64,000 nucleotides of DNA from Candidatus Limnocylindria bacterium (GTDB lineage: Bacteria; Chloroflexota; Limnocylindria; P2-11E). Numbering within the stretch: the stretch's first letter is position 1; every line of letters starts with the position of its first letter. Made by a program: the position numbers and the translations under genes. This document shows, one piece after another, positions 9,802 through 64,000 of this stretch. A model generated the notes under the pieces. It ran no database searches. It was not told the origin of the DNA and saw only the letters and a program-made list of their open reading frames with translations. The DNA is taken from contig DASYUY010000031.1 of NCBI GenBank assembly GCA_036000705.1, forward strand, positions 394 through 64,393, written 5' to 3'.

Positions 9802-10732
9802 GACGCTCAGCGTGATAGGAGGAACGCACGAGCGGACCGGCTTCGACATGCCGGAAGCCCATCGTCATGCCGACGTCGCGCAGCTCGTCGAACTCCGAGG
9901 GCGTCCAGTAGCGCTCGATCGGCAGATGCACCGGCGACGGTCGCAGGTACTGCCCGACGGTGAGGATGTCCGTTCCCTGCGCCGCGATGTCGCGCATCGT
10001 TGCGACGACCTCGTCGCGCGTCTCACCGAGGCCGACCATGATCCCGCTCTTGCACACCAGGTCCGGAGCGCGCTCCTTCGTTCGGCGCAGCACCCCCAGC
10101 GATCGCTCGAAGCGGGCCTGCGGGCGGACGCGCGGATACAGACGCGGCACCGTCTCGACGTTGTGATTGAGGATCTCGGGTCGTGCGGCGAGGACCACGT
10201 CGAGCGACTCGGGACGCCCGACGAAGTCGGGGATGAGCACCTCGACGCTGGTGCCCGGTGACTGGCGGCGGATCTCGCGGATCGTCTCGGCGAAGATCTG
10301 GGCGCCACCGTCCGCCAGCTCGTCGCGGTTCACGCTCGTGACGACGGCGTGGCCAAGGGCCATCTGGGCGACGGCCTCACCGACCCGCCGCGGCTCGTCC
10401 GCATCCACGGCGCCGGGCCGCCCGGTCTTCACGGCGCAGAACCCACAGGAGCGCGTGCAGGTGTCCCCAAGGATCATGAAGGTCGCCGTGCCCGCGCCCC
10501 AGCATTCGGCCATGTTGGGACAATGCGCCTCCTCGCAGACCGTGTGGAGCTCCTTGCTGCGCATGAGCCGCCGCAGGTTCTCGTACGTCGGACCCGTCGG
10601 CAGACGCACCTTGAGCCACTCCGGTCGCGCGCGGTCGATGGGCACGACCGTGTTCGAGGCGCCGCGCCCACGAGAGCGCGGCCGCTCGATCTCGCCCGGG
10701 ATCTCAAAGACGATCGGCGCGAGCTCCGCCAC
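9788..10732 (-). CDS. lipA: lipoyl synthase (radical SAM)
   Basis: '[14 protein letters not shown]' and '[10 protein letters not shown]' cluster motifs. Confidence 0.95.
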
Positions 10733-12147: not shown

Positions 12148-12180
12148 GAAGCACCTCCGCGGCACAGCGGGCGGCGACCA

Positions 12181-13167
12181 CTAATACGCCGCCAGCTCAC
12201 GCATCTTCGTCGCGATCTTCTCAGGATCCGGCATGAACCAGTCCTCTTGCGGCTTGTTGTACGGCATCGCCGGGACTTCGGGTCCACCCAGGCGCATCAC
12301 CGGCGCGTCGAGCGCGTCGAAGGCCTCTTCGGCGATGAGCGCGGCGATCTCCGCGCCCGCGCCGAATAGCCGGTTGTCCTCATAGACGATCAAACACTTT
12401 CCGGTCTTCCGGGCTTCCCGCACGATGGTCGCCGCGTCCAGCGGCCGGAGGCTCCGGACGTCGACGACGGCCACCGATACACCCTCGTTCGCCAACGTCT
12501 CGGCCGCCTTCAGGCTGTGATGGAGCATCAGCCCGTACGCGAAGACCGTGATGTCGGTGCCGTCGCGCTTCACGTCGGCAGGTCCCAGCGGGATCGTGAA
12601 GTCCGGGTCGTCCGGCGCGTCGCCGCGGACCGCCCGGTAGGTGGCCTTGTGCTCGAGGAAGATGACCGGGTCCGGATCCCGCAGCGCCGCCCGCAGCATG
12701 CCGGTGATATCCCGGGGGGTGCTCGGCACGACGACCTTCAGCCCTGGAACGTGCGCGTAGAAGGCCTCGACCGACTGCGAGTGATAGAGCGCGCCGTGGA
12801 TGCCGCCGCCCCACGGCATGCGGACCACCATCGGCACGCCATACGCGCCGTTCGACCGATAGCGGATGCGCGCCGCCTCGTCGACGATCTGCTCGAACGC
12901 GGGCGCGCTGAAGTCCGCGAACTGCATCTCCGCCACCGGCAGGAGACCGCCGATGGCGGCGCCGATCGCGATGCCGACGATCGAGGACTCCGCGACCGGT
13001 GTGTCGATGATGCGGTGCTTTCCGAATTCCTCGATGAAGCCGTCGGACACGCGGAACACACCGCCGCGGACTCCGACGTCTTCGCCCATGAGGATGTAGC
13101 GCCCATCGCGCCGGAACTCGGACAGCAGCGTGTCATGGACCGCCTGGACGTTGCTCTTCTCGGTCAA
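12181..13167 (-). CDS. 2-oxoacid dehydrogenase E1 beta subunit (stand-alone)
   Basis: 'ILMGEDVGVRGGVFRVSDGFIEEFGKHRIIDTPVAESSIVG' and 'FADFSAPAFEQIVDEAA'. Confidence 0.9.
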   Translation of the reverse strand: MTEKSNVQAVHDTLLSEFRRDGRYILMGEDVGVRGGVFRVSDGFIEEFGKHRIIDTPVAESSIVGIAIGAAIGGLLPVAEMQFADFSAPAFEQIVDEAARIRYRSNGAYGVPMVVRMPWGGGIHGALYHSQSVEAFYAHVPGLKVVVPSTPRDITGMLRAALRDPDPVIFLEHKATYRAVRGDAPDDPDFTIPLGPADVKRDGTDITVFAYGLMLHHSLKAAETLANEGVSVAVVDVRSLRPLDAATIVREARKTGKCLIVYEDNRLFGAGAEIAALIAEEAFDALDAPVMRLGGPEVPAMPYNKPQEDWFMPDPEKIATKMRELAAY

Positions 13168-15629
13168 TGGTCCAACTCTATGTCCAACGACGGGAAGCGA
13201 TCAGGATGACGCTCGCGCTGGACCCGGTACGCGGCCGCGAAGATGTCCTCGCGGCTCGGCTTGGAGAAGTAGTCGCCGTCAACACCCACCGGAGTGCGGT
13301 TCGCGCGCGCCGTCAGCGTGCGCGGGCCGACGTCGAGGTGGTCGATGCCGCCCTGCGTCTCGATGATCTGCTGGAGGATGTAGGCCGACGCGCCGCCGGG
13401 CAGATCCTCGTCGACGACGAGAAGCGCCCCGGTCCGTTTCACCGACTCGACGATCGTGTGTCGAACGTCGAACGGCAGCAGCGTGCGGACGTCGACGATC
13501 TCGACGTCGATGTCGGCTGCCGCCAGATCCTGCGCCGCCTCGAGCGCGATGCGGCAGAGCGCTCCGTACGTCACGACCGTGATGTCGGCGCCTTCGCGGA
13601 GCAGCTCCGGAACGCCCAGGGGCAGCGTGAATTCGCCCACGTTCGCCGGCGCGCGCTCCTTCAGGCGGTAGCCGGACAGCACCTCGATCACGATCCCGGG
13701 ATCGTCGCCGCGCAGCAGCGTGTTGTAAAAGCCTGCGGCCTGCGTCATGTCACGCGGGACGCACACGTGCACGCCGCGCAGCGTTCCGAGGAGCATCTGC
13801 ATCGGCGAGCCCGTGTGCCAGATCCCCTGCAGCCGGTGGCCCTTCGTCCGGATGATCACCGGCGCCATCTGCCCGCCCGCGGTGCGATGACGCAACGTCG
13901 CGAGATCGTCGGATGCGATCTCGAGCGCGAACAGAAGGTAGTCCACGTACTGGATGTCCACGATCGGTCGCAGCCCGCGCATCGCCGCGCCGATGCCCTG
14001 TCCCAGGATCGTCGCCTCGCGGATGCCCGTGTCGGCGACCCGGAGCGCGCCGTGCTTCTCCTGGAGACCCTCGTACACGAGGTTGACGTCGCCGAGCCGC
14101 CCGACGTCCTCGCCGAGGATCACGATGCGCGCATCGCGCGTGAGGTTGGCGTCGAAGCAGCGGAGCAGCACCAGACGGCCGTCGATGACCTCCGGCTTCG
14201 TCGGATACTCGGGCGCGACCGTCCGCACGCGCAGTGGCGACAAGTCGGATTCGCTGAGGAGGTGCGAGTTGTAGCGCGCCTCGTTCTCCTCGCGGTACGT
14301 CCGAACGAAGCGCGCGAGCTCGCTGCGCGCCGGGCCTTCGCGTCCACGGAGCGCGGTGAGCGCGCGGAACGCCGCGGTGTACACGGCGCGGTGGCTCAGC
14401 GGGTCCCCCGCCTCGCGCAGCTCCGCCATCACCGTTTCGAACGACACGCCGCTCTCGGAGCCGGCGGCACCGATGAGCGTGATCGCCTCGTCCCGTCGGC
14501 GGCGGATCGGCTCCTGGAACGTCTCGTAGGCGCGCTCGCGGATGTGCTCGACCTCGGAGCGGTCGTGCTTCTCGAACTCGTCGAGCGTGGCGGCGTCGGC
14601 GACGTCCTGGCGGATCATCCACTCGCGCATCCTGCGGATCGGATCGGCCTCGACTTCGAAGCTGAGGCGCTCCTTCGGCTTGTAGCGCTCGTGGCTCCCG
14701 CTGGTGGAATGCCCCTGGGGCTGCGTCATCTCGATCACGTGAACGATGGCGGGTGCGTGCTCGCGGCGGACGCGCTCGGTGATGATCGCGTACGTGTCGC
14801 AGAGCGCGACGTAGTCCCAGCCCTTCACGACCTCGATCTCGAATCCCGGGCCACCGTCGCGTCGCATTCCCGCGAGCGCCGCGGATACCGAGCTCTTCGT
14901 CATCTGGAGCGCGTTGGGGACCGAGATGCCGTACGCGTCGTCCCAGACGCTGATCAGGAGTGGCACCTGCAGGACGCCGACGGCGTTGACCGACTCCCAG
15001 AAGAGGCCCTCCGCCGCGGCGGCGTTGCCGATCGTCGTGAAGCAGACCTCGTCGCCGCCATGCGAAAAGCCTTTCGCGGCGTCGCGAAGCCCTGCGGACT
15101 CGCGGTATAGCTTCGACGCCCACGCGAGACCGACCGACCGCGGCATGTGCGCCGCGACCGGCGAGAAGTCGGACGCGACCTGGATCGCGCTCAGGAGGTC
15201 GCGCCAATGCCCGCGCTCGTCGACGATGCGGGTCGCGTAGTGATTCGACATCTGGCGCCCACCGGAGAACGGGTCGTGCGTCACGTCGGCGTCGGCGTAG
15301 AGCTGCGCGAAGTACTGCTCGAGGGTCGTGACGCCGACCGCGAGCATCACCGTCTGATCGCGGTAGTAGCCGCTGCGCCAGTCGCCAGGCCGCATGACGT
15401 GCGCCATCGCGAGCTGGGCGACCTCTTTTCCGTCACCGAAGATGCCGAACGGAGCGCGTCCGGCGAGCACCTCCCGGCGGCCGAGCTCGCTCGCGGCGCG
15501 GCTGCGCACGGCGAGGCGATAGTCGGCGATGATCTGCTCGGCGCTGAGGATGAGCTTGGCGCGCGGCGTCGTGATCGACGGCCGCGAGCGGGTCTTCACG
15601 CCGGTCCCAATGGTGCCAGTTTCCCTCAC
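13164..15629 (-). CDS. fused E1 alpha/beta TPP-dependent dehydrogenase component (821 aa)
   Basis: N-terminal half is E1-alpha-like and contains 'TTIGNAAAAEGLFWESVNAVGVLQVPLLISVWDDAYGISVP'. C-terminal half is transketolase-like Pyr plus C domains: 'RVADTGIREATILGQGIG', 'IRTKGHRLQGIWHTGSPM'. Confidence 0.85.
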   Translation of the reverse strand: MRETGTIGTGVKTRSRPSITTPRAKLILSAEQIIADYRLAVRSRAASELGRREVLAGRAPFGIFGDGKEVAQLAMAHVMRPGDWRSGYYRDQTVMLAVGVTTLEQYFAQLYADADVTHDPFSGGRQMSNHYATRIVDERGHWRDLLSAIQVASDFSPVAAHMPRSVGLAWASKLYRESAGLRDAAKGFSHGGDEVCFTTIGNAAAAEGLFWESVNAVGVLQVPLLISVWDDAYGISVPNALQMTKSSVSAALAGMRRDGGPGFEIEVVKGWDYVALCDTYAIITERVRREHAPAIVHVIEMTQPQGHSTSGSHERYKPKERLSFEVEADPIRRMREWMIRQDVADAATLDEFEKHDRSEVEHIRERAYETFQEPIRRRRDEAITLIGAAGSESGVSFETVMAELREAGDPLSHRAVYTAAFRALTALRGREGPARSELARFVRTYREENEARYNSHLLSESDLSPLRVRTVAPEYPTKPEVIDGRLVLLRCFDANLTRDARIVILGEDVGRLGDVNLVYEGLQEKHGALRVADTGIREATILGQGIGAAMRGLRPIVDIQYVDYLLFALEIASDDLATLRHRTAGGQMAPVIIRTKGHRLQGIWHTGSPMQMLLGTLRGVHVCVPRDMTQAAGFYNTLLRGDDPGIVIEVLSGYRLKERAPANVGEFTLPLGVPELLREGADITVVTYGALCRIALEAAQDLAAADIDVEIVDVRTLLPFDVRHTIVESVKRTGALLVVDEDLPGGASAYILQQIIETQGGIDHLDVGPRTLTARANRTPVGVDGDYFSKPSREDIFAAAYRVQRERHPDRFPSLDIELDH

Positions 15630-16501
15630 GCCGCGGCTGCCGCTTCGGCGCGGTCGAGGAACGGCAGCAGCGCGGCGAGGAACACCTCGGTGCGCTCGAC
15701 CTGCGGAAGGTGGCCGCAGTCGTCGATGAGCTCGACCCGTGCCTGAGGCATCACGTCCTCCGCCTCCGCCGCGTGCGCGACCGGCAGCACCCTGTCCTGA
15801 CGACCCCAGATCACGATGACCGGCCCCGCGAAGCGCGGCGCGAGCGCGACCCAGTGCTCGCGCACCGACTGTCGAACGCCGAAGATCGTGACGCCGGAGC
15901 GAAGCGCGCGAACGAACTCTCCGAAGGAGGCGAAGCCGTAGCGTTCCGCCTCGTCGTACAGGAGCTCCGGGATGCGACGCGAGTCATGAAAGCAGGTTCG
16001 TAGCACGTCCCGTGCTTGCTCCGGCCGGCCGAACACCCGCGACAGCGCAGCAACGCCGGGGAGCGTGCACAGGCGCAGGAAGAGGGCGACCTCCGTGCCG
16101 ACCCCACCGCCCGCGACCAGTGCCAGCGAGCGCGTGCGTTCGGGCTGGCTCACCGCCGCGGTGTACGCGACCGCACCGCCCATCGAATTACCGACGAGAT
16201 GAGCGGAGCGGATGCCGAGCTCGTCCAGCAGCGCACCGATGAACCGCGGATAGAAGGGATCGCGCGGTCCGAAGTGCTCGACGTCCCCCGGTGGATCGCT
16301 CTGGCCGAAACCGGGAAGGTCGAACGCGATCGCGTGCCGACCACTGCGAGCGATCGGTGTCATCACCTCGCGCCAGTTCTCGGCCCAACCGCCGACACCG
16401 TGGATCATCAGCACCGCATCGCCGCGCCCTGCGTCGCCTTCTTCGAGGACGCGCGTGCGCAGACCCATGACGCTCACCGTCTTCGAGCGGATCACGTCCA
16501 T
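15626..16501 (-). CDS. alpha/beta hydrolase
   Basis: C-terminal 291 aa of track ORF 15626..17554, from 'MDVIRSK'. 'MIHGVGGW', 'GNSMGG', 'DDCGHLPQVE'. 4-nt overlap with the fused E1 gene. Confidence 0.8.
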   Translation of the reverse strand: MDVIRSKTVSVMGLRTRVLEEGDAGRGDAVLMIHGVGGWAENWREVMTPIARSGRHAIAFDLPGFGQSDPPGDVEHFGPRDPFYPRFIGALLDELGIRSAHLVGNSMGGAVAYTAAVSQPERTRSLALVAGGGVGTEVALFLRLCTLPGVAALSRVFGRPEQARDVLRTCFHDSRRIPELLYDEAERYGFASFGEFVRALRSGVTIFGVRQSVREHWVALAPRFAGPVIVIWGRQDRVLPVAHAAEAEDVMPQARVELIDDCGHLPQVERTEVFLAALLPFLDRAEAAAAA

Positions 16502-27555: not shown

Positions 27556-27561
27556 TAGGAT
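27556..27561 (+). promoter_or_regulatory. -10-like TAGGAT, 9 nt upstream of ATG 27571
   Basis: TANNNT. Same hexamer as upstream of 47095. Confidence 0.3.
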
Positions 27562-27570
27562 ACGGTCGCG

Positions 27571-29004
27571 ATGGCGACGAAGGCGCCCACGCTCGCGGAT
27601 CGTCTGCGCGAGATCGTCCCCGCCGAGCAGGTCATCGACGATCCCGCGACGCTGCTCCCCTACGCGTACGACGCGTCCTTCTGGTCGCTCCGCCAGCAAC
27701 GCCTGCCCGATGTCGTCGTCGTGCCGCGTACGACGTCGGAGGTGGCGAGTGTGGTGCGCTTCGCCGACGCGACCGGCACCCCCGTCGTCCCGCGCGGCGC
27801 GGGGACGGGGCAGACCGGTGGCGCGATCGCCGCCCGTGGCGGGATCGTCATCTCCTTCGCACGGATGCGCGAGATCCTCGAGATCGACCGCCGAAACCTG
27901 CAGGTCGTCGCCGAGCCCGGGCTCGTCTTCGCCGATCTCCAGGACGCGCTGCGACCGCATGGCCTCTTTTTCCCGCCCGATCCGGGCAGCGGGCGCGCCT
28001 GCACCCTCGGCGGCATGGCGGCGAACAACGCCAGCGGTCCGCATGCGGTCCGTTGGGGAACGACGTCCGCGTACGTGCTCGGCGTTGAGGTCGTACTCGC
28101 GGACGGATCGGTCATCACGACCGGCGGCGTGCGCTCGAAGGCGCTGAAGTCGTCGAGCGGCATCGATCTCACGAAGCTCTTCGTCGGCTCGGAGGGAACG
28201 CTCGGCATCATCACTCGCCTACGCCTTCGCGTGCAGCCGCGACCGCCGGCACGTGGCGTCGTTCTGGCCGGCTACGCCGCGCTCGAGGACACCGTCGCCT
28301 CGCTCGACGATCTCTTCGCGGCCGGCATCCTGCCGTCGACTGCGGAGCTGCTGGATCGCAGCGCGGTCGATGCGCTCCAACGCTGGAAGCCGGAGCTCGG
28401 GCTGCCCGACGGCGAGGCGGTGCTCTTCATCGAGGTCGAGGGCACGCCGGACCAGGTCGCGTCCTCGGTGCGCTACGTCGACGGCATCGTGCGCCGGCGC
28501 GCGACGGTGACGAAGTTCGCCGAGGCCGAGGCGGACATCGCCCGGCTATGGGCGGCGCGCAGCGGCCTCGCGGCGGCCGCCGGGCTCGCGCATCCCGACA
28601 AGCACCGCATCTTCGCGGGCGAGGACCTGGCGGTGCCGCTGTCGGAGATCCCCCGCACGATCCGACGCGCGCGCGAGATCAGCGCCGAGCTCCACATCGC
28701 GGTGATCTTCTACGGCCACTTCGGCGACGGCAACGTGCACTCGGCGATCCTCATCGACCCGTCGGACGCCGATGAGGTCCGGCGCGCGGACGAGCTCGCC
28801 GACCGGCTCCACCGTCTCGCGATCGAGGTCGGTGGCACCGTCACGGGCGAACACGGCACCGGGGCGGTGCGTCAGCAGTACATGCGCGCGGAGCACGGTG
28901 ACGCGCTTGACCTCATGCGCCGAGTGAAGACCGCACTCGATCCCAAGGGCATCCTGAATCCGGGAAAGATCTATGGCCAGGGGAGCGACACGTCCCCGGG
29001 ATGA
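27571..29004 (+). CDS. FAD-linked oxidase, GlcD-like
   Basis: 'VVPRGAGTGQTGGAI' and 'GTVTGEHGTG'. Divergent from the GlcF-like gene. Confidence 0.85.
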   Translation: MATKAPTLADRLREIVPAEQVIDDPATLLPYAYDASFWSLRQQRLPDVVVVPRTTSEVASVVRFADATGTPVVPRGAGTGQTGGAIAARGGIVISFARMREILEIDRRNLQVVAEPGLVFADLQDALRPHGLFFPPDPGSGRACTLGGMAANNASGPHAVRWGTTSAYVLGVEVVLADGSVITTGGVRSKALKSSSGIDLTKLFVGSEGTLGIITRLRLRVQPRPPARGVVLAGYAALEDTVASLDDLFAAGILPSTAELLDRSAVDALQRWKPELGLPDGEAVLFIEVEGTPDQVASSVRYVDGIVRRRATVTKFAEAEADIARLWAARSGLAAAAGLAHPDKHRIFAGEDLAVPLSEIPRTIRRAREISAELHIAVIFYGHFGDGNVHSAILIDPSDADEVRRADELADRLHRLAIEVGGTVTGEHGTGAVRQQYMRAEHGDALDLMRRVKTALDPKGILNPGKIYGQGSDTSPG

Positions 29005-29052
29005 CGATGGCACGCACAGTCGCCCCGCACATCTCAGAGCTGGGCCGCTCGA

Positions 29053-29724
29053 CTAGAGCGTGCGCACGGCGAGCGGTCGCTCGCCCTTCGCGTCGACGTG
29101 GAACGCCCGTCCCTCGGCACGTGCGCTGACGACTTCGACGAGTCCCTCGTCGTCGTAGCGCGCCGCGACGCCATCTTCGAGCGCGATGCCCGGCGGCAGG
29201 CCGGCAGCGACCTCGCGCGCGTAGACAGGGCGGCGTGCGTCCTGTGAGTCGTAGTGGGGACACGCGGTGCCGGCGAGGAGCGCGAGACCATCACGCAGAG
29301 CGGTGAGCCGCGGCGTGAACGAGTCCGTGATGCCTCCTTCGAACCAACACAGACAGCCCGCGGACCAACCGCTCAGCACCGTGCCGCCCGCGTAGGCCGA
29401 GCGCAGCGCGCCGTCGACACCGTGCAGCCGCCAGATCGCGAGCATGTTCGCGGTGTTGCCGCCGCCCACGATGACGATGTCCTGAGCGCGCACCAGTGTG
29501 TCGATGTCGTCGACCACGCGATCGAAGAGTGCGAGATGGGTCGGCTCACAGTCGACCCCCGCGAACGCCTGATAGAAGGTGAGCAGGTACCCCGCGCCAT
29601 CGCCTGACGCAGTGCCCAGGAAGAGCACGCGTGGTCGCGCGCGGCGCGCGAGCCCGAGAACGTAGCTGGTGAGCGCCGGGTAAGAGAGCTGCTGGCCACC
29701 ACACGCGACGACCCGCCTCACCAT
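29053..29724 (-). CDS. peptidase S51 (peptidase E-like)
   Basis: 'IVIVGGGNTANML' and 'LSGWSAGCLCWFE'. Start taken at 'MVRRVVACGG'. Confidence 0.7.
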   Translation of the reverse strand: MVRRVVACGGQQLSYPALTSYVLGLARRARPRVLFLGTASGDGAGYLLTFYQAFAGVDCEPTHLALFDRVVDDIDTLVRAQDIVIVGGGNTANMLAIWRLHGVDGALRSAYAGGTVLSGWSAGCLCWFEGGITDSFTPRLTALRDGLALLAGTACPHYDSQDARRPVYAREVAAGLPPGIALEDGVAARYDDEGLVEVVSARAEGRAFHVDAKGERPLAVRTL

Positions 29725-36028: not shown

Positions 36029-37089
36029 CCGAGGCGCTCGCGCATCCAGTCCGCCATGGCCGGCCGGTACTTGTAGGGGATGTTGTTGCAGACGTGGTTG
36101 CCTTCCGGATACAGGAGAAGCGTGCCGTTCGGAGCTTCGCGGACGATGCGCTCCGCCTGCTCGGGCGGGAACAGACGGTCCTTGCCGCCGTGGACCACGA
36201 GGAGGGGGCAGCTGACGTCGGGGAGCACCCCACGCAGGGTGAGGGTCTTCGATCGCTCGAATGCCTCGGCTTCGTCACGCGACTTCGTGTAGAAGACGTA
36301 GCCGGCCCTCGTGAGCGGATTCAGCTGCGCCCAGCACTCCGAGAGGTCGAAGGGGCCCGCGAGCGCGACGAGCGCGCGAAGCCGCTTCTCCTTCGCCGCC
36401 GCGCGCGGTCCGTAGATCCCGCCCATGCTGACGCCCACGAGACCGACGCGGTCCAGGCGCACGCCATGGTCGCGCGACGCGAGGTGATCGAGCAGTGGCG
36501 TGATGACCGTCGACCAGTCGGCGCGGATCGCGAATCGCGGCGCGCTCTCACCCTGCCCCGGACCGTCGATGCTGAGCGTCGCCATCCCGCGCCGGAGGAA
36601 TTCGTTCTCGATCGCGAAGAGCTCCTCTTTCACCGAGTCGAGCCCGGGCACGAGAATGACGAGCGGCGCGGCCTCCCCGTCGGGTCGGCGCAGGATGCCC
36701 GGGATGACCGACCCTTCGAACGGCGCTTCGACGCGCGCGCCGGCCGGGCTCAGGCCGCGTAGCGCGTTCGCGTAGGTGTCGACGGTCAGCTGGCGTAGCA
36801 GGTCGTGGAGCGCGGCGTCCTCGAACCAGAGGAACTTGCCGAGGTGGTACGACCACGCGGCACGCTGGAACGCGTCGGTTGCCGTGACGAGGCGGCCGCT
36901 CCGCTGCGCGTCCTCCGCGATCGCTCGATGCTGGTCCCCCACCCGCTGCCAATGTGGCGCCCAGTCGCGCCACTCCGTGGTCTCGGAGAGCACGCGCTCG
37001 AAGTCGTTGGCGTCGATCCCGTTCGCGACGAAGCGCGGCTTCCAGTGGCTCGCGGCGAGCCGGACGCGGTCCGCGGTCTCGGTCGCCAT
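36025..37089 (-). CDS. alpha/beta hydrolase resembling the 2,6-dihydropseudooxynicotine (C-C bond) hydrolase family
   Basis: 'LVILVPGLDSVKEE', 'GVSMGG', helical N-terminal cap. The family assignment is from recall. Confidence 0.65.
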   Translation of the reverse strand: MATETADRVRLAASHWKPRFVANGIDANDFERVLSETTEWRDWAPHWQRVGDQHRAIAEDAQRSGRLVTATDAFQRAAWSYHLGKFLWFEDAALHDLLRQLTVDTYANALRGLSPAGARVEAPFEGSVIPGILRRPDGEAAPLVILVPGLDSVKEELFAIENEFLRRGMATLSIDGPGQGESAPRFAIRADWSTVITPLLDHLASRDHGVRLDRVGLVGVSMGGIYGPRAAAKEKRLRALVALAGPFDLSECWAQLNPLTRAGYVFYTKSRDEAEAFERSKTLTLRGVLPDVSCPLLVVHGGKDRLFPPEQAERIVREAPNGTLLLYPEGNHVCNNIPYKYRPAMADWMRERLG

Positions 37090-38237
37090 CAGCTCTCCAG
37101 TTGCTTCGCGACGTCGGCCAGGAACTGCGCGGCGTCGGCGCCATCCGCGACCCGGTGGTCGACGCTGAGGGTGAGCGAAACGACCGGACCGACCGCGGGC
37201 GCGCCGTTCGCGACGGTCACGCGATCCGCGACGCGACCCACCGCGAGGATCGCCGCCTCCGGCGGATTCACGATCGCCGTGAAGCGGTCGACGCCGAACG
37301 TGCCCAGGTTGGACACCGTGAGCGTCGCCCCGCCGAACGCGCCCGCAGGCACATGGCCCGACCGCGCGGCCGCCTCGAGCGCCTCTCGCTCGTCGCGCAG
37401 GGTCGCCAGATCCTTGCGGTCGGCCTCGCGCACGACCGGCACGATGAGCCCGGCATCGAGCGCGACGGCGATGCCGATGTCGGCACGATCCGACTCGATC
37501 ACCGCGTCGCCATCGAACCGTGAGCGCAGGCGCGGGTGGCCGCGAAGCGCCCTCGCCGCCGCCGCGACGATCACGTCGGTGTACGACACGCCCGCGGCCT
37601 TGCGCCGGGCGTTGGCCGCGGTCATGTCGACATCGCGCGAGATCGAGAACTGCGGCGCCTCGCGCGCGCTGCGTGTCATCGCCTCGGCGACGGCGCGCCG
37701 CATACGCGTGAGTGGGACGCGTGTCTCGCCCAAAGCCGCGGCCGACTCCGCGGTCGGAGACGACGCGGCGGCGTCGACGTCGTCGAGGCCGATGCGTCCG
37801 CCCGGGCCGGTGCCGCGCACCACGTTGATGTCGACGCCCAGTTCTTGCGCACGCTTGCGAGCCGCGGGCGACGAGCGCACGCGCTCGCCGTCGGACGGCA
37901 AGACCGGCGCGGCAGGCTGCGTGAGACCGGCGGCTGATCGAACGGCGTCCGCGCGGGCCGCTACCGGCTCGGCGACGCTCGGCAGCGGCTCGTCCGCCGT
38001 GTCCGAGATGAGCGCGATCACCGTGGTCACCGGGGCGGTCGCGTTCGCCGGCACGAGGATCCGTCGCAGGATGCCTCCAGCCGACGCCTCGATCTCCATG
38101 TTCGCTTTGTCCGTCTCGACTTCGAAGAGGACGTCGCCCTTGGCGACGCGGTCACCTTCCTTCTTGTGCCAGGCGATGAGCCGCCCTTCATCCATCGTGA
38201 GTCCGAGCTTGGGGAGGATGACGCGGGTGACGCTCAC
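37089..38237 (-). CDS. 2-oxoacid/acetoin dehydrogenase E2 (dihydrolipoamide acyltransferase)
   Basis: GTG 38237. 'EVETDKANMEIEA', PSBD 'SPAARKRAQELGVDINVVRGTGPGGRI', 'LSVDHRVADGA'. Confidence 0.85.
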   Translation of the reverse strand: MSVTRVILPKLGLTMDEGRLIAWHKKEGDRVAKGDVLFEVETDKANMEIEASAGGILRRILVPANATAPVTTVIALISDTADEPLPSVAEPVAARADAVRSAAGLTQPAAPVLPSDGERVRSSPAARKRAQELGVDINVVRGTGPGGRIGLDDVDAAASSPTAESAAALGETRVPLTRMRRAVAEAMTRSAREAPQFSISRDVDMTAANARRKAAGVSYTDVIVAAAARALRGHPRLRSRFDGDAVIESDRADIGIAVALDAGLIVPVVREADRKDLATLRDEREALEAAARSGHVPAGAFGGATLTVSNLGTFGVDRFTAIVNPPEAAILAVGRVADRVTVANGAPAVGPVVSLTLSVDHRVADGADAAQFLADVAKQLES

Positions 38238-38256
38238 GCTCGCATCCCTGCCTCCA

Positions 38257-39276
38257 TCAGGCGACAAGCTCCTTCGCGACGCGGACGATGTCGTCGACTT
38301 GCGGCACGACGGTCTTCTCGAGATGCTGCGCGTACGGGATCGGCGTCTCGAGACCGGCCAGGCGCTTCGGCGGCGCGTCCAGGTCGTCGAACGCCTCCTC
38401 CGCGACCATCGCCGCGATCTCCGCGCCGTATCCACCGCGCCTCACCGCCTCGTGCACGACGAGCAGCCGGTGCGTCTTGCGGACCGAGGTCAGCACGGCG
38501 TCCTTGTCGAGCGGCACGAGCGACCGCAGGTCGATGACTTCGGCATCGATGCCGTCGGCGGCGAGCCTGTCCGCGGCTTCGAGTGAGAGCAGCGTCTCGC
38601 GCGACCAGGTCACGATCGTGAGATCGGTGCCCTGGCGCTTCACCTCGGCCGTGCCGAGCGGCACGACATGCTCGCCGGTGGGCACCTGGCCTTTGGTGCG
38701 GTACAGGAGCTTGTGCTCGAGAAAGATCACCGGATCGTCGTCGCGGATCGCGGCTGCGAGCAGACCCTTCGCGTCGGCCGGCGTCGAAGGCATCACCACC
38801 TTGAGGCCCGCGACGTGCGTGAACCACGCCTCGAGCGACTTCGAGTGCTGGGCCGCGTTCCCGCGGCCGGATCCGCCCTGCGTTCGCATGACCATGGGTA
38901 CCCGTGCCTGCCCGCCGAACATGAACCGGTTCTGGGCCGCCTGGTTCACGAGCTGGTCCATCGCCAGCCCCGAGAAGTCGACGTACATGAGCTCCACGAC
39001 CGGACGCAGGCCCGTCAGCGCGGCACCGACCGCGGCGCCGACGATGCCGAGCTCGCTGATCGGCGTTTGGCGGATGCGCGTCGGGCCGAACGCGTCGAGC
39101 AGCCCCGCCGTGACCTGGAACGCGCCACCGTGCTCGGCGATGTCCTCGCCCATCACGATCACGCGCGGGTCGCGCTCCATTTCGATGCGCAGCGCGTCGC
39201 CGAGCGCCTCGTTGTAGAACATCTCGCGCGTCGGGCTCGACTCCGAGACGCGCTCAGGGTGCTCAGTAGCTCGCAT
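38257..39276 (-). CDS. E1 beta subunit
   Basis: 'VIVMGEDIAEHGGAFQVTAGLLDAFGPTRIRQTPISELGIVG'. Start ATG 39276 overlaps the end of E1 alpha. Confidence 0.9.
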   Translation of the reverse strand: MRATEHPERVSESSPTREMFYNEALGDALRIEMERDPRVIVMGEDIAEHGGAFQVTAGLLDAFGPTRIRQTPISELGIVGAAVGAALTGLRPVVELMYVDFSGLAMDQLVNQAAQNRFMFGGQARVPMVMRTQGGSGRGNAAQHSKSLEAWFTHVAGLKVVMPSTPADAKGLLAAAIRDDDPVIFLEHKLLYRTKGQVPTGEHVVPLGTAEVKRQGTDLTIVTWSRETLLSLEAADRLAADGIDAEVIDLRSLVPLDKDAVLTSVRKTHRLLVVHEAVRRGGYGAEIAAMVAEEAFDDLDAPPKRLAGLETPIPYAQHLEKTVVPQVDDIVRVAKELVA

Positions 39277-40225
39277 ACACGTCCTCAGGAAGCGTGATGG
39301 GCGACGCCGGCGGCCCCGCCTCGGCCCACGCGACGGCGCGCCTCGCTTCCTCGAGCACCTCGGCGTCGATCGCGTCGAGCTCCGCCGCGGTCGCGAGCTT
39401 CGCCTGGGTGATCCAGGCGCGCATGTCGACGAGCGGGTCGAAGCGCGCCTTCCATCCTTCGATCTCGTCCTTCGACTGGTACTTCCGCGGGTCGCCGTAG
39501 TAGTGCCCCTCATGGCGGTACGTATCCGCGACGAGGAAGGCCGGTCCCTCGCCGCGTCGCGCACGCGCGATCAGGTCGCCCGCCGCGTCGTAGACGGCGC
39601 GCACGTCGCGACCGTTCACCCGCACGCCGGGCATGCCGTAGCCTTCCGCGCGCTTGCTGATGTCCTCGACGGCGAATGCGCGCTTCACCGGGAGGCTTTC
39701 GGCGTACTGGTTGTTCTCGCACACGTAGATGACCGGCAGCTTCCAGATGGACGCGAGGTTGGCGGATTCGTGGAACGCACCCTGGTTGACGGCGCCGTCG
39801 CCGAAGAACGACACGGCGACCTGATCCGTGCCGAGCTGCTTCGCCGTCAGCGCCGCGCCCGTCGCGATCGGGATGCCGCCGCCGACGATGCCGTTCGCGC
39901 CGAGATTGCCCTTCGAGGTGTCGGCGATGTGCATCGACCCGCCTCGGCCGCGGCAGTACCCCGTTTCTCGTCCGAGCAGCTCCGCGTACATCCGGCCGAG
40001 GTCGGCACCCTTCGCGATGCAGTGTCCGTGTCCCCGGTGGGTGGAGGTGATCCAGTCGTCGTCGCGCAGGTGGGCGCACACGCCGGCCGCGATGCCTTCC
40101 TCACCAGCGTACGAATGGATCGTGCCCCAGAGCTTGCCTTCGCCGAACAGCACCGTGGAGCGCTCCTCGAAATCTCGGATGCGCTTCATGACGCGGTACA
40201 CATCCAGCGCCGTGCCCTTGTCCAT
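39263..40225 (-). CDS. E1 alpha subunit (TPP-dependent)
   Basis: Canonical TPP motif 'FFGDGAVNQGAFHESANLASIWKLPVIYVCENNQYAES'. ATGA overlap with the upstream ADH stop. Confidence 0.9.
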   Translation of the reverse strand: MDKGTALDVYRVMKRIRDFEERSTVLFGEGKLWGTIHSYAGEEGIAAGVCAHLRDDDWITSTHRGHGHCIAKGADLGRMYAELLGRETGYCRGRGGSMHIADTSKGNLGANGIVGGGIPIATGAALTAKQLGTDQVAVSFFGDGAVNQGAFHESANLASIWKLPVIYVCENNQYAESLPVKRAFAVEDISKRAEGYGMPGVRVNGRDVRAVYDAAGDLIARARRGEGPAFLVADTYRHEGHYYGDPRKYQSKDEIEGWKARFDPLVDMRAWITQAKLATAAELDAIDAEVLEEARRAVAWAEAGPPASPITLPEDVYASY

Positions 40226-41304
40226 CAGCTCTCCCCGGCCGGATGCAGCATGACCCGGATCGCTCCATCGCGACGCTCGGTGAAGGTCGCCCACGCCTCG
40301 GCGAAGTGCTCGAGCGGGAAGTGATGGGTCACGAGCCGGCGCACGTCGATCCGCCGGTCAGCCAGCAGCTCGAGCGCGCGCCCGGACACACCTTTCGGGT
40401 TCGCGAGTGAGCCGAGAACATCCAGGTTGCCGCGCACGATCGTGGCGAGGTCGATGCCCGACAGCTCGACGCCGCTCCCGGTCGCGCCGCCGAGGACGAC
40501 ACGACCGCCACGACGCGCGGTCAGGATCGCCGCGCGAGCCGCATCGGCAGTCCCGGCGAACTCGACCACCACATCCGCGGCGCCGCGGAGCGCATCGACA
40601 TCGGCGGGGTCGACGACCTCGTCCGCGAGATCGCGGACGCGCTCGAGGCGAGTGCCCCGCCCGACGAGTGTCACCGCGCGGGCGCCGAGGGCGCGCGCGA
40701 GCTGCACGGCGCAGAGACCGATCGCCCCGGGTCCGAAGACCACGACGCGCTCCCCCGCCGCGAGGCGGCCGCGCTCGAGCGCCCACAGCGCGACCCCGAG
40801 GTTATCGGTCCAGGCCCCGTCATCGAAGCTCACCGCATCGGGGAGGAGGTGCAGCGCGGCCTTCGGCACGAGCGCGTACTCGGCGAGCCCTCCGGCGATC
40901 GTGAAGCCGACGTGCGCGTGGCCGGTCTCGCGTTTCCCGTAGTTCATGCAGAGCGTGTACATGCCCTCGCGGCAACGGTCGCACGAGCCGCAGCCGACGT
41001 GCACCTCGACGCCGACGCGCGAGCCCACGGGCAGCGTGACGCGCTCGCCGGCGCTGACGACCTCACCGCTGAACTCATGACCTGGGATATGCGGGAAGCG
41101 CGTACCGGGGAACCGCCCGGCGAGGATCTTCTGGTCTGACGCGCACACCATCGACGAGCGCACGCGCACGATCGCCTGGCCACGGCTCGGCGTCGGCACG
41201 GGCACCGTCTCGACGCTGTACTCGCCGGAGCGAGCGAAGACGACGGCGCGCATGGTGGAGGGAACGCCGGCGCGGCGAGGCGGTGCCTCGGTCGCGGTCC
41301 TCAT
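40225..41304 (-). CDS. zinc-dependent alcohol dehydrogenase (MDR family)
   Basis: 'CASDQKI', 'GHEFSGEVV', 'VFGPGAIG'. The conserved N-terminus begins at 'MRAVVFA' (41253). ATG 41304 overlaps the upstream stop. Confidence 0.85.
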   Translation of the reverse strand: MRTATEAPPRRAGVPSTMRAVVFARSGEYSVETVPVPTPSRGQAIVRVRSSMVCASDQKILAGRFPGTRFPHIPGHEFSGEVVSAGERVTLPVGSRVGVEVHVGCGSCDRCREGMYTLCMNYGKRETGHAHVGFTIAGGLAEYALVPKAALHLLPDAVSFDDGAWTDNLGVALWALERGRLAAGERVVVFGPGAIGLCAVQLARALGARAVTLVGRGTRLERVRDLADEVVDPADVDALRGAADVVVEFAGTADAARAAILTARRGGRVVLGGATGSGVELSGIDLATIVRGNLDVLGSLANPKGVSGRALELLADRRIDVRRLVTHHFPLEHFAEAWATFTERRDGAIRVMLHPAGES

Positions 41305-46892: not shown

Positions 46893-46972
46893 TCGGGCTC
46901 CTCTCGTTCCCACCACCCCGGGATCGGGAATTTCCGCAGTATCGGCCGCAGGCGGCGCCAGCGTCAAATGAA

Positions 46973-46995
46973 CAATCGATTGGACAATCGATTGT
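46973..46995. promoter_or_regulatory. tandem perfect palindromes CAATCGATTG-ga-CAATCGATTG (candidate LacI-family operators)
   Basis: Two 10-bp perfect palindromes with a central CG, 2 bp apart. The second extends to the 12-bp ACAATCGATTGT. They lie in the divergent region between the LacI gene and the CMD-like gene. Confidence 0.5.
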
Positions 46996-47080
46996 GCGAG
47001 CAGCGTGGCGCCGCCGTCGCCTCAGCGCGTGGGAAGGCGCGGAGCGGCGACCGCTGCGGTGGCTCACCTGACGCGCCGGA

Positions 47081-47094: not shown

Positions 47095-47673
47095 ATGGCG
47101 CGCATCAGCTACGTCGCTCCGGAGTCGCTCGATCCGGAGCTCCGCGGCTATCTCGAGGACGCGCGACGCTTCGGCACGCCACGACCCGAGACGCAGTCGA
47201 TCCGCTCGCACGTTCCGGCCGTCGCCAAGGCGTTCTCGCATGCCTGGGATCGCATGTTCCGCCACGGTGTGCTGGATCATCCGCTCAAAGAGCTGTGCCG
47301 CGTCTACGTCTCGAAGACCATCGAGTGCGACTACTGAGGCTCGCAGCGGTCTCTTCGTGGAAGAGAACAGGGACTGACCGAGGCGGACTACACGGGGCTC
47401 CTCGATTTCGAACGCTCCGATCGCTTCACGGCACGTCAGAAGGCCGCGCTCCTGTACACCAGCATGCTGGTCTGGGATCCGGAGGGTGTTGACGACGCCC
47501 TGTGGGCGGAGCTCCGCCGGCATTTCTCCGAGGCGCAGATCGTCGAGCTGGGCAGCTTCATCGCGGTGACCTACGGACAGCAGCGGGTCATCAAGACCTG
47601 GAGCGTCGGCCATGGCGAGCTTGCGGGGGAGGCCGGCGCGGGACTCGCGCCGACCGAGAGCGAGCGCTCGTGA
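47095..47673 (+). CDS. AhpD/carboxymuconolactone-decarboxylase-family protein with in-frame TGA at 47335..47337 (candidate selenocysteine, C-x-x-U)
   Basis: Track ORFs 47095..47337 and 47464..47673 share a frame, and no other stop lies between them. Read-through gives 'KTIECDY[U]GSQR...FTARQKAALLYTSMLVWDP'. Confidence 0.55.
47350..47366 (+). other. hairpin 12 nt downstream of the in-frame TGA (candidate bacterial SECIS)
   Basis: tctcttc-gtg-gaagaga, 7-bp stem. It spans six consecutive A/T-ending codons in a GC3-rich genome. Confidence 0.45.
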
Positions 47674-48041
47674 CACGCCTGCCGGGTGATGCCGACACGA
47701 TCCGGGGCATGGTCCCCGCCGCCCGCGATGCCTGGCGCGAGATCGCCGACAACGTGCTCCGCACCGGCATCGTGGATCAGGGCCTCAAGGAGCTCTGTTT
47801 CCGCCACCTCGCGGGCGACCCCGACACGATGGATCACGGCCGCTTCGGACCGCGCGAGGGCACCGCGCTGCGGTGGGCCGACGCGATCGCACACGACTCG
47901 GGTCGCGCCGATGACGCATTGTGGACGCTCCTGCACGCTCACTTCAGCGAGCCGGAGCTGGTCGACCTCGGATGTGCGATCGGCTTCGAGCTCGGCCAGC
48001 AGCACTGGCGGCGCACGCTGGGATTGCCCGCGCGCGACTGA
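47670..48041 (+). CDS. CMD/AhpD-like paralog lacking the CxxC motif
   Basis: GTGA overlap with the upstream stop. 'GLKELCFRHLAG' and 'ALWTLLHAHFSEPELVDLGCAIG' parallel the upstream gene. Confidence 0.55.
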   Translation: MTRLPGDADTIRGMVPAARDAWREIADNVLRTGIVDQGLKELCFRHLAGDPDTMDHGRFGPREGTALRWADAIAHDSGRADDALWTLLHAHFSEPELVDLGCAIGFELGQQHWRRTLGLPARD

Positions 48042-57717: not shown

Positions 57718-57772
57718 GATAGAACAATAGTTCTAACGAGGATCGGCCGTCAATAGGTTCGTGACAATTCAG

Positions 57773-57844
57773 CTCCGCGGGGAGGATTCGAACCTCCAAC
57801 CATCGCCTTAACAGGGCGCCGATCTACCGTTGATCTACCGCGGA
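57773..57844 (-). tRNA. tRNA-Asn (anticodon GTT)
   Basis: Folded by hand. Acceptor TCCGCGG/CCGCGGA, D arm GATC-AACGGTA-GATC, anticodon loop CTGTTAA, T arm GGAGG-TTCGAAT-CCTCC, discriminator G, no encoded CCA. One G.A mismatch at 27:43. Confidence 0.8.
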
Positions 57845-60397: not shown

Positions 60398-62059
60398 TTA
60401 CTCCAGGTAGTCCTTGAGCTTGCGGCTCCGGCTCGGGTGACGCAGCTTCCGCAGCGCCTTCGCCTCGATCTGACGGATCCGTTCGCGCGTCACGTTGAAC
60501 TCGCGACCGACCTCTTCGAGCGTCCGCGTCCGTCCGTCCTCGAGACCGAAGCGCAGCTGCAACACGCGACGCTCGCGGCCGGTGAGACCTTCGAGCACGC
60601 TCTCCACTTGCTCCTTGAGGAGCTTGTGCGATGCCGCGTCGGACGGCGCGAGCGCCTGGTTGTCGGGGATGAAGTCACCGAGGTGACTGTCCTCCTCCTC
60701 ACCGATGGGCGTCTCGAGCGAGACCGGCTCCTGCGAGACCTTCACGATCTCGCGCACCTTGTCGGGCGTGATGAGCATGCGCTCGGCGATCTCCTCCGCC
60801 GTCGGCTCGCGACCGAGCTCCTGGAGCAGGCCACGTGACACGCGGATGAGCTTGTTGATCGTCTCCACCATGTGGACCGGGATACGGATCGTCCGTGCCT
60901 GATCCGCGATGGCGCGCGTGATGGCCTGACGGATCCACCACGTCGCGTAGGTCGAGAACTTGTAGCCCTTGCGGTAGTCGAACTTCTCGACCGCGCGGAT
61001 GAGGCCGATGTTGCCTTCCTGGATGAGGTCGAGGAACGACATGCCACGGCCGATGTACTTCTTAGCGATCGAGACGACGAGTCGCAGGTTCGCCTCGGTG
61101 AGGTTGTGCCGCGCGTCGTCGCCCTTCTGGATGAGCTCGTCGGCGAGACGGCGCAGCGCGCGCTGCTCGTCCGCGTCGGACTCGACGAGCATGTTGAGGT
61201 TCTTCACCAGCACGTCGCGGATCTCCTGGCCGAGCATGACGAGCTCGCCGAGACGCTCGGCGCCTTCGGCCGGGCCGTGGATCTTCGCGTACTGCGGCAG
61301 GATGCGGAACGCGAGGCGCTGCGGATCGCGCTTCGCGGCATCGATCAGCGAGACGGTCTCGTCGATGAGGACCTTCGCCTCGGTGGAGATCTCCTTGCTG
61401 TTCGCTTCCGCCTTGAGCGGATCGCGCAGCTTGAGGAGACGGTTGGTCAGACGGCGCAGCTCCTTGCCGCCCTCGCCGTCGTCGAGGGTGCGCGTCAGTG
61501 CCTTGACGGTGAAGCGCGTCGCCTCGTCCACGTACTCACGCGGACGTCCGAGCGCCATGCGCTTCTTGACCTCGACGCCGAGCTCGTACAGGTGAACGAC
61601 GGAGAGCGCGGGCGACACGAGCGCCTGTTCCCCCAGCTCGATCGACTTGGCGAGGTTGACCTCTTCCTCCGCGGTGAGCAGAGGGACCTTGCCGATCTCC
61701 TTGAGGTACATGCGGACCGGGTCGTCGACGCTGATGAGGTCGCTGGCGAGGACCGCCGAGATGGCGTCCTCACGCTGCAGCTCCTCGGCTTCTTCTTCTT
61801 CCTCTTTGACCTGGGCCCAGTTGGGGCCGCGCTCAGCCTCGAGGATCTCGACGTTGTTGTCATCGAGAGCGAGGAGCAGCTCCTCGATCTCGCCCGGCTC
61901 GGCGTCCGGGATCGCCCGAACGATGTCTTCCTGCGTGACGTAGCCCTGCTGCCGGCCGCGCGCAAGCAGCCGCTCGGCCTGCTCCTTGTGCTCCGGGTGG
62001 ATCCCGGTGCGCTCGGGAGCCGCCTTTTCGGTCTCTTTTTCCTTCGTTGTCGCTTTCAT
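60398..62059 (-). CDS. rpoD: primary RNA polymerase sigma factor
   Basis: '[27 protein letters not shown]', '[29 protein letters not shown]'. Acidic N-terminal region. Confidence 0.95.
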
Positions 62060-63891
62060 CGATCCTCTTCTCGCTCCAGCTCGCTGTGCAAAACTGTCCG
62101 GCGTTCGCGCCGCTTCATGAGCTGTTCGAGCTCCTCGCCCATCCGCGCGATCTCGCCATCCAACCCCCCAACATCGCCGTCAGCGCGCGCGAGCTGGACC
62201 CGCGCGTCACCCAGACGACGCTGCACGTTCTTCTCCCGAAGGCGCAGCGCGGCGATCTCGATCATCTGGCCTGGGTCCGTCTGTTCGCCGAGCTCAGGCG
62301 CACTTGCGCCAAGTGCCGCAGCTAAGGCGGCCAGGTGAGCCGGCAGGTCAGACTCCGGACGCTTCCCCGCCTGAAGATGTTCGAAAAGTGCACGCAGGTC
62401 GGGGTCCACCAGGTCAGCAGGCGCGAGGTCAGCGCGCGCGATCTCCTCCGGATATCGAGTCAATAGTGCCATGACGTAACGCTCGAATGAAGGCGTTTGT
62501 TTCGGCGTCGCCGTCTCGGCGCGTGTTTGCGCAGAAGGCTCGCGCCCGGTTCGAGGCGTTCGGTCCGTTCCCTTTCCGGCCGCGGGGAGCCTCTCTCTTA
62601 AGAACGCTGGATCGACCCCAGCGCTTCCCGCCACCTCGGAGAGATAGACCTCGCGGCGGACCGGATCCGGCTCCTCGGCGATCAAGGCCGCCGTTCGCTG
62701 GAGGAAGCGCAGCCTGCCTTCGGACTGGTCCAGTCGGGAGGTCGCGCGGACCCGGTCGATGAGGAATTCGAGGAGCGGCTTCGCGTCGGTCAGGAGCCGG
62801 CGGAGCAGCTCCGGCTCCTTTCGGGCGACGTCGTCCGGGTCGAGGCCCTCGGGCAGGACGGTCACGAACAGGGCCAGCCCGGTGCGTGTGCCCAGACGCC
62901 CACCGCCGGCGCCCGAGCCGAAACGGCTGAGGGCGCTGAGGAGCTCCCGCCCGCGGGATTCGGCGGAGCGCTGGCCAGCGGCGTCCCCGTCAAAGGCGAC
63001 GATGGCTCGCTCGATCTTCATGTCGTTGAGCGCGCGGTACTGATCCTCGGTCAGCGCCGTGCCCATCGAGGCGACGACGTTGGCGAACCCCGACTGGTGG
63101 CAGGCGATCGTGTCGAAATAGCCCTCGACGATGACCGCGGTGCCTTCCTTGCGGATCGCCGCGCTGGCCTTGTCCAGCCCGTAGAGCGTGGCGCTCTTGT
63201 TGAACAGGAGGGTCTGAGTCGAGTTGACGTACTTGCCCTGCTGATCGGGCCGCATCGCGCGGCCCCCGAAGGCGATGGCGCGGCCCCGCCGGTCGCGAAT
63301 GGGCACCATCAGGCGGTCTCGGAACCGGTCGAAAAGGCCCCTGTCGGTCCTGATGATGAGTCCCGCGGCGATGGCCTCGTCCTCGCTATAGCCCTTCTTC
63401 CTCAGGTACGCGAGGAGGCTGTCGCGCTCGTCGGGCGCGTACCCGATGCCCCAGGTGTCGATCGATTCGGGCGTGATCCCGCGCTTCGCGAGATATTCGG
63501 CCACCTGCTTGCCGCGAGGCGTGCCCCGGAGCGCCTGCCGGAAGTAGAAAGCGGCTGCGTCGTTGGCCTGCAGCAGCCGGTCCTCGAGCTTTCGCTCCTC
63601 AGGCGCCCGGCGCGTCAGCTCGATGCCGGCGCGCTCGGCCAGCGTCTGCAGCGCCTCGGCCGGCGTCAGGCCCTCCCGCTTCTCGAGCCAGGTGAAGACA
63701 TCGCCCCCCTCGCTACAGCCAAAGCACTTGTAACTGCGGCGATCCGGGTCGACGTGGAACGAAGGCGTCTTCTCGAGATGGAACGGGCACAGCCCGACAA
63801 AGCCTCGGCCAGCCTTCTTGAGAGGAACGCTTTCACCGATGAGTTGGACGATGTCGACGCGTTCCTTGACGAGATCGAAGTCACCAGGCAT
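62056..63891 (-). CDS. dnaG: DNA primase
   Basis: Zn finger '[32 protein letters not shown]', TOPRIM 'AVIVEGYFD'. 4-nt overlap with the rpoD start. Confidence 0.95.
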
Positions 63892-63901
63892 ACCGACAAC
63901 G

Positions 63902-64000
63902 TTAGCGGCCGGACGTTGTCAGCAGCTTCTCCAGCTTTCGGACGTCGACGGGCTTGGTCACGTGCTCGTCGAATCCAGCGTCGCGCGACAGCCGGCGATG
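63902..64000 (-). CDS. C-terminal fragment of a response-regulator receiver domain (gene continues beyond the window)
   Basis: '...RDAGFDEHVTKPVDVRKLEKLLTTSGR*' matches the receiver-domain C-terminus. Confidence 0.45.
   Translation of the reverse strand, partial: HRRLSRDAGFDEHVTKPVDVRKLEKLLTTSGR

Follow-up and report, generated by a model that had tools for sequence, protein, structure and literature searches.

A candidate AhpD-like selenoprotein with a C-x-Y-U motif and a conserved SECIS-like hairpin in soil and freshwater Chloroflexota and Actinomycetota

AhpD-like proteins (COG2128) and proteins with a carboxymuconolactone decarboxylase (CMD) domain that carry selenocysteine (Sec, U) in a C-x-x-U motif were described in 2005 from the Sargasso Sea (Zhang, Fomenko and Gladyshev, PMC1088965). 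Both were subsequently counted among the most abundant selenoprotein families of the Global Ocean Sampling (GOS) data, with 299 and 70 sequences respectively (Zhang and Gladyshev 2008, PMC2398784), and recent reviews as well as BSepDB include them. Here we analyze a gene of this type located at 47095..47673 on the plus strand of a 64,000-nucleotide stretch of contig DASYUY010000031.1, from a Candidatus Limnocylindria bacterium; the whole stretch is termed the window below. Likened by description, the published AhpD-like selenoproteins share with the window gene the fold family, a Sec in second position of C-x-x-C and widespread Cys homologs, and their selenocysteine insertion sequence (SECIS) is, as in the window, a small hairpin with a G in the apical loop just 3' of the UGA. 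The published members were found mainly in the sea, or in Clostridia and Deltaproteobacteria, whereas the clade of the window gene comes from soil and freshwater, from Limnocylindria-like Chloroflexota and from Actinomycetota of the Gaiellaceae and Thermoleophilia, and, in a further difference, its members are always followed by a motif-less paralog. The gene belongs to a well-known bacterial selenoprotein type; its novelty lies in the clade, one of soil and freshwater, which has escaped both gene callers and current curated models.

We assign a probability of roughly 0.9 to the reading that 47095..47673 is one gene, encoding an AhpD-like thiol/selenol oxidoreductase of CMD fold in which the second active-site Cys is replaced by Sec (C-x-Y-U). 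Four components of this reading are borne out by the data: the UGA is conserved at the Cys column, the sequence downstream of it is translated, the hairpin past it is conserved, covarying and specific to UGA forms, and the predicted fold is AhpD-like. The internal TGA itself is almost certainly read as Sec, an assignment of residue identity made by sequence comparison.

A UGA at the redox motif of an AhpD-like gene

The frame opened by ATG 47095 runs to a TGA at 47335-47337, continues free of stops for 126 nt to an ATG at 47464 and closes with a terminal TGA at 47671-47673. Read through, it comprises 192 codons, of which codon 81 would specify Sec, and the 192-residue product includes the segment KTIE-C-D-Y-[TGA]-G-S-Q-R-S, with the redox motif C-D-Y-U (TGC GAC TAC TGA) at 47326..47337. 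An earlier note on this DNA had described two open reading frames (ORFs) in one frame, separated by 126 nt without a stop and jointly giving about 192 aa, and had placed the TGA at the second Cys of a C-x-Y-C motif. Translation agrees with the former statement, and the latter holds as well, homologs having Cys in that column.

A scan of one genome per GTDB species yielded 80 loci with 67-81% protein identity, to which eight metagenome loci and the window were added. TGA occupies the motif column in all 89 of these close orthologous loci. By record title, the 80 species-representative metagenome-assembled genomes (MAGs) divide into 30 Chloroflexota, many of them named 'Candidatus Limnocylindria', 48 Actinomycetota, which include Gaiellaceae and Thermoleophilia, and two odd bins. 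Two contigs with typically bacterial Sec-form loci, L016 and L079, were assigned to bins named 'Candidatus Bathyarchaeia archaeon' and 'Candidatus Acidiferrales bacterium' and are probably mis-binned.

A protein search returned about 96 homologs of full length (185-203 aa), and C-x-Y-C stands at the column in nearly all of them. It also returned at least 13 database proteins that terminate right at C-x-Y and several others that begin just past it. Two homologs, the protein records P0005 (L092, 181-759) and P0010, show Trp at the Sec column (C-D-Y-W in P0005); they were rejected as true Trp variants, since the P0005 contig carries TGA, which the gene caller had translated as Trp. TGC was found at the column in six Cys-form lineages (P0001, P0008, P0034, P0065, P0042 and P0095). 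The alignment proposed in the earlier note thus gives a clear partition, with TGA in all close orthologs and TGC in more distant homologs and in P0001. The latter (L088-L091, 5001-5579) is syntenic and 72% identical to the window protein, and its neighbourhood is that of the Sec-form loci L001 and L002, with amine oxidase, alpha/beta-hydrolase, creatinase and Mo-hydroxylase genes upstream and the paralog, amidohydrolase, EamA and ABC transporter genes downstream. One MAG, Actinomycetes bacterium RYN_239, has both a Sec form with its paralog and a Cys form, on contigs L074 (JAOPYX010000351.1) and L096 (JAOPYX010000193.1); its Cys form is P0042, which is 57% identical to the window protein and has no paralog beside it.

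Translation past the TGA was assessed with 86 distinct TGA-containing coding sequences compared pairwise. In every one of them the frame stays open for 96-150 codons past the TGA, with neither frameshifts nor extra stops, and the ratio of nonsynonymous to synonymous substitution rates (dN/dS) is 0.25 upstream of the internal TGA and 0.26 downstream of it.

The family assignment draws on both sequence and predicted structure. Residues 41-121 of the read-through protein match the Pfam CMD domain (PF02627) at 29.2 bits, above the cutoff of 23. An AlphaFold2 model of the Cys ortholog P0001 is all-helical (pLDDT 93.9), and a Foldseek comparison of this model with the PDB retrieved solely AhpD/CMD folds at E < 0.01, with TM-scores of up to 0.78, among them PA0269 (7xw1, 2o4d), the 'AhpD core' protein 2prr, 2oyo, the D. 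radiodurans alkyl hydroperoxide reductase 6k40 and the debrominase Bmp8. The modeling thus points to an AhpD-like fold for the selenoprotein. The shorter chains of the P. aeruginosa AhpD/PA0269 group (7xw1, 2o4d, 2ijc), likewise of all-helical AhpD fold, reach TM-scores of 0.58-0.62 relative to the query, and the peroxidase-related 'AhpD core' proteins 2oyo, 6k40 and 2prr reach 0.76-0.78; all of these are Cys enzymes with 17-28% sequence identity to the window protein. In the alignment, the C-A-Y-C of PA0269 coincides with the C-D-Y-U of the window protein. The classical AhpD signature is C-x-x-C-x-x-x-H, with a His four residues past the second Cys. The window protein (C-D-Y-U-G-S-Q-R) has an Arg where PA0269 (C-A-Y-C-V-N-M-H) has this His, and it is for that reason not a classical AhpD; Q85-R86-S87 are invariant in the selenoprotein clade. 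The label given to homologs by the Joint Genome Institute (JGI), 'alkylhydroperoxidase family enzyme', is that of COG2128, which makes the window protein, indirectly through this label, a candidate member of the COG2128/YciW type.

The hairpin downstream of the UGA

Within the coding sequence, 12 nt past the TGA, begins a hairpin of the form tctcttc/gtg/gaagaga (47350..47366, plus strand), in which 47350-47356 pair with 47360-47366 around a GUG loop at 47357-47359 that lies 19 nt after the UGA. The six codons across it, TCT CTT CGT GGA AGA GAA, all end in A or T, a succession with a probability of about 2.3e-5; the reference genes of the window have a G+C content at third codon positions (GC3) of 0.855 and use TCT for 5 of 241 Ser codons and AGA for 6 of 455 Arg codons. 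The position, size, G/U-containing loop and A/T-ending codons had all been noted beforehand and are confirmed in the window sequence. The proposed fit to a bacterial SECIS (bSECIS) also stands, as the GUG loop, the 7-bp stem and the 19-nt spacing lie within the published consensus (loop of 3-9 nt, stem of 4-16 bp, G in the first two loop positions, 16-37 nt from UGA to loop; PMC13188914). A covariance model built from the hairpin scores the window site at 61.9 bits against 12 bits for the next best match, and finds no second site in the window; the model includes gene-specific flanks and is no general SECIS detector.

The comparison was extended to the 70 distinct 48-nt sequences found 3' of the TGA in orthologs, with positions counted from the U of UGA. 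All 70 form a perfect hairpin of 6-8 bp between positions 15/17 and 32/33, with a loop that starts 19-20 nt after the UGA and reads GGG, GUG or GGC, or is a pentaloop such as CGUGC or GGGCG, and all 70 have bSECIS geometry. The absence of the hairpin from TGA-containing orthologs, named in the earlier note as grounds for abandoning a selenoprotein, was therefore not encountered in a single case, and the hairpins covary.

Two registers could be distinguished, with 3' arm positions 2 nt apart and encoded residues that shift to match, G-G-E in one and G-R-D or G-R-E in the other; both occur in Chloroflexota and in Actinomycetota, and RNAalifold finds both de novo. Class A (26 sequences, including the window) encodes S-L-R-G-R-[D/E] and has 93.5% of its cells paired. 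Four of its eight pairs have changed on both sides: U-A to C-G at 18/30, C-G to U-A at 21/27 (the state of the window), C-G to G-C at 22/26 and G-C to A-U at 15/33. In covariation this class scores 0.212 as compared to 0.123 for shuffles, none of 500 of which reaches that value, and slid controls score far lower. Class B (44 sequences) encodes S-L-R-G-G-E and has the same 5' arm, the 3' arm shifted by 2 nt, and a bulged U that sits above a G-C pair; at synonymous sites its stem nucleotides do not vary at all, in contrast to the third positions in the flanks, which vary freely. Codon choice follows the stem across the orthologs: the Ser codon at +5 is TCT in 67 sequences and TCC in 19 and never TCG, though TCG is preferred at other Ser positions, the Gly codon at +9 is GGA in 57 of 61 sequences, and dS is lower across the hairpin codons (0.46) than elsewhere (about 0.63). 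Fixed rare codons, lowered dS and covariation together uphold the earlier suggestion that RNA structure constrains the coding sequence here.

In the six Cys-form lineages the hairpin is absent, merely 0-3 consecutive pairs being formed in either register. P0001, a syntenic Sec-to-Cys revertant, still has the 5' arm with its rare TCT codon, while its 3' arm is destroyed (GCC CGC GAG); the hairpin remnant looks like a decaying SECIS relic. The hairpin is conserved, covarying and specific to the UGA forms.

The SECIS of the E. coli fdhF type likewise lies in the coding sequence directly after the UGA and has a small apical loop containing G/U, and the class B orthologs resemble it further in having a bulged U below the stem. 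As compared to this type, the putative SECIS of the window clade has a much shorter stem (7-8 bp) and a triloop; SelB binding is predicted.

Decoding of the UGA

We propose that a ribosome reaching the UGA at 47335-47337 would encounter the hairpin at 47350-47366, 12 nt downstream, which would present its G-U-G apical loop and recruit SelB·GTP·Sec-tRNA(Sec), SelB being the presumed factor, so that Sec would be inserted and translation would proceed to the real stop at 47671-47673. In the protein, the selenol would act as attacking nucleophile and Cys78 would resolve the intermediate as a selenenyl-sulfide, in a cycle such as that of the C-x-x-C of AhpD-type peroxidase/reductase partners, with peroxide or disulfide reduction as the probable chemistry. 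The attacking nucleophile in M. tuberculosis AhpD is the second of the two C-x-x-C cysteines, and a Sec at the second motif position fits for this reason. The debrominase Bmp8 (6ohi/6ohj), a thiol-dependent dehalogenase of the CMD family with the same fold (phmmer E = 4.9e-4, Foldseek TM-score 0.68-0.70), indicates that the fold supports chemistry beyond peroxide reduction; it represents an alternative chemistry only, its identity to the window protein being 17% and no halogenation genes lying near the selenoprotein gene.

Several results weigh against a selenoprotein. The best-scoring curated models are NF053654 ('GroundWater_YciW, YciW-related (seleno)protein'), with 59.3 bits over residues 1-159 (E = 3.8e-16) against a cutoff of 310, and TIGR01926 ('peroxidase-related enzyme'), with 31.5 bits over residues 9-164 (E = 1.4e-7) against a cutoff of 81.8. 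Because these scores are far under the curated cutoffs, the window protein belongs to neither equivalog/subfamily and would go unflagged as a selenoprotein in the Prokaryotic Genome Annotation Pipeline (PGAP). The window hairpin, at -7.2 kcal/mol for the minimal 24-nt segment, a flank-dependent value, is the weakest of the 70 and falls short of the threshold of the SECIS model (-7.5 kcal/mol or lower), which 69 of the 70 sequences reach (mean -11.1). The 66-nt fold of the window has a non-significant z-score of -0.94, 53% of synonymous recodings of the hairpin region fold as stably, and 5.8% of recodings give a SECIS-like stem of 7 bp or more. Taken by itself the window hairpin is statistically unremarkable, and its significance comes from the comparative data. 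As for the Sec machinery, neither the 64-kb window nor the 93 fetched loci gave a tRNA-Sec with ARAGORN, tblastn with E. coli queries gave no SelA or SelD match in them, a result that is a lead only, and no sel-related Pfam domain occurs among 20 large window ORFs, which encode housekeeping and catabolic genes; these searches covered the window and about 1.4 Mb of fetched flanks rather than whole genomes, and absence there is uninformative.

Other signs of Sec use were sought in the same material. A search with Rfam at gathering thresholds reported tRNA-Asn alone in the window, which says nothing on short bacterial SECIS elements, and a heuristic scan of all loci for further genes with an in-frame TGA and a hairpin gave nothing but off-frame noise of the kind usual in high-GC DNA. 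Two pairs of ORFs joined by a TGA, 25915-24494 (minus strand) and 27559-29247, were rejected as read-throughs, being ordinary gene ends. Nothing specific was found in the literature on selenocysteine in Limnocylindria, Gaiellales or Thermoleophilia.

The alternative that survives best is that in these soil Chloroflexota and Actinomycetota the UGA and its hairpin are decoded without selenium, either through a SelB-like delivery of Cys by a non-canonical tRNA-Cys(UCA) or through hairpin-stimulated near-cognate read-through giving Trp, Cys or Arg. Vargas-Rodriguez and colleagues reportedly described in 2018 the SelB-mediated insertion of Cys at Sec codons by a non-canonical tRNA-Cys, and the data prove solely that the UGA is decoded and accompanied by a conserved SECIS-like hairpin, with no Sec machinery in the window and the fetched loci. 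We nonetheless hold such decoding to be improbable. The position is that of the nucleophilic Cys of a redox motif, in a documented Sec/Cys family with C-x-x-U members; a plain TGC would serve for Cys, and revertants such as P0001 show that TGC is accessible, yet 80 of 80 species representatives keep the TGA together with a costly hairpin. The Sec trait is moreover documented in Actinobacteria and Chloroflexi (PMC1794560).

Still less probable, to a degree that leaves it only a marginal chance, is a split gene, in which the TGA would be a true stop, the C-terminal part of about 110 residues would be produced by re-initiation and the two polypeptides would assemble into one AhpD fold. Gene callers do annotate the homologous locus in L002-L007 as 81 aa plus 109 aa, and conservation downstream of the TGA would be expected here too. 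The 42 codons that separate the TGA from the next ATG in the window (47338..47463, plus strand) are, however, translated sequence and not a spacer: over codons +1..+42 dN/dS is 0.22, and in 67 of the 86 orthologs this stretch lacks an in-frame start codon (ATG, GTG or TTG). The continued purifying selection downstream and the scarcity of start codons in this segment strongly disfavor re-initiation. A split would furthermore fall inside C-x-x-C and remove a catalytic residue, and it explains neither the constant TGA nor the covariation of the hairpin.

By default, an in-frame stop would be put down to a nonsense pseudogene (TGC or TGT to TGA) or to an error in sequencing or assembly. The comparative data already refute both, since the TGA is common to 89 independent assemblies from two phyla and the 86 distinct sequences, under equal purifying selection on both sides, show no frameshift, extra stop or decay. 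A reassigned genetic code was also rejected, because TGA is the ordinary stop of about half of the confident ORFs of the window, including the selenoprotein gene and its paralog.

The selenoprotein reading proposed in the earlier note is thus supported, and none of the three tests run to refute it (decay in orthologs, TGA orthologs lacking the hairpin, a sequencing error at the codon) went against it.

The coupled paralog and the surrounding genes

The ORF at 47670..48041 (plus strand, 123 aa) overlaps the end of the selenoprotein gene by a GTGA and is 30% identical to its product; a deletion of 27 residues has taken out the C-x-x-U segment together with the region of the hairpin. The motif-less paralog with GTGA overlap reported earlier is accordingly real. 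A homolog of it lies immediately downstream in 93 of the 93 fetched loci, including those of the nearest Cys forms, and is absent beside the more distant Cys forms in the loci examined. It is a reasonable inference from this arrangement that the selenoprotein and the paralog are partners, for instance in a hetero-oligomer, and the selenoprotein probably works with this co-transcribed protein as its putative partner subunit.

Between phyla the orthologs (L008-L087) are on average 72% and at most 80% identical, as compared to 79% within each phylum, and the nearest neighbor of a sequence is never in the other phylum. The unusually high identity across phyla suggests that the two-gene module was moved between them by an old transfer. 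On a further reading, milder in its novelty than decoding without selenium, the Sec protein and its always-adjacent paralog might form an obligate heteromeric redox enzyme whose genes would have traveled between phyla as a module.

The genes flanking the pair in the window are 89-93% identical to those of two Chloroflexota MAG loci, L027 (JALYLT01, 'Chloroflexota bacterium AFD bin46') and L039 (VBFY01, 'CF_64'), with 92% and 90% respectively for a thiamine pyrophosphate (TPP) enzyme and 90% and 93% for a Crp-family regulator, which assigns the window to a Limnocylindria-like genome of the Chloroflexota. Gene neighborhoods differ between lineages and give no clear hint of substrate. Upstream, the palindromes mentioned in the earlier note are present as two adjacent copies, ACAATCGATTG / CAATCGATTGT, at 46972-46995, with a LacI-type AANCGNTT core, in the intergenic region that the selenoprotein gene shares with a divergent gene for a LacI-family regulator (45849-~46868, minus strand). 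They more likely belong to this regulator than to the gene pair, because the neighborhood of the pair changes from one lineage to another. The palindromes are bracketed by a 10-nt perfect inverted repeat (46951-46960 / 47006-47015) and followed by a 21-nt imperfect inverted repeat (47009-47058).

Elsewhere, the window contains genes for an rpoD-like sigma factor (60398-62179) and dnaG (62056-63918) and a tRNA-Asn (57772-57844), housekeeping genes that identify it as chromosomal, as well as two separate 2-oxoacid dehydrogenase sets (E1, transketolase-like E1 beta and lipoyl E2) at 10732-15983 and 37089-40357 (minus strand).

General knowledge of selenoproteins is unchanged by this finding. It does provide a clean natural case of RNA structure shaping protein sequence, in which two registers of a 3' arm are accompanied by matching residue changes. 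Public assemblies split the gene into its 81-aa and 109-aa parts or mistranslate the UGA as Trp, and its scores against the closest curated models stay far under the cutoffs. As a result, standard annotation overlooks a selenoprotein whose conservation extends over at least 80 species from abundant Chloroflexota and Actinomycetota of soil and freshwater. Its presence implies the use of selenium for a redox function in these mostly aerobic, uncultured lineages.

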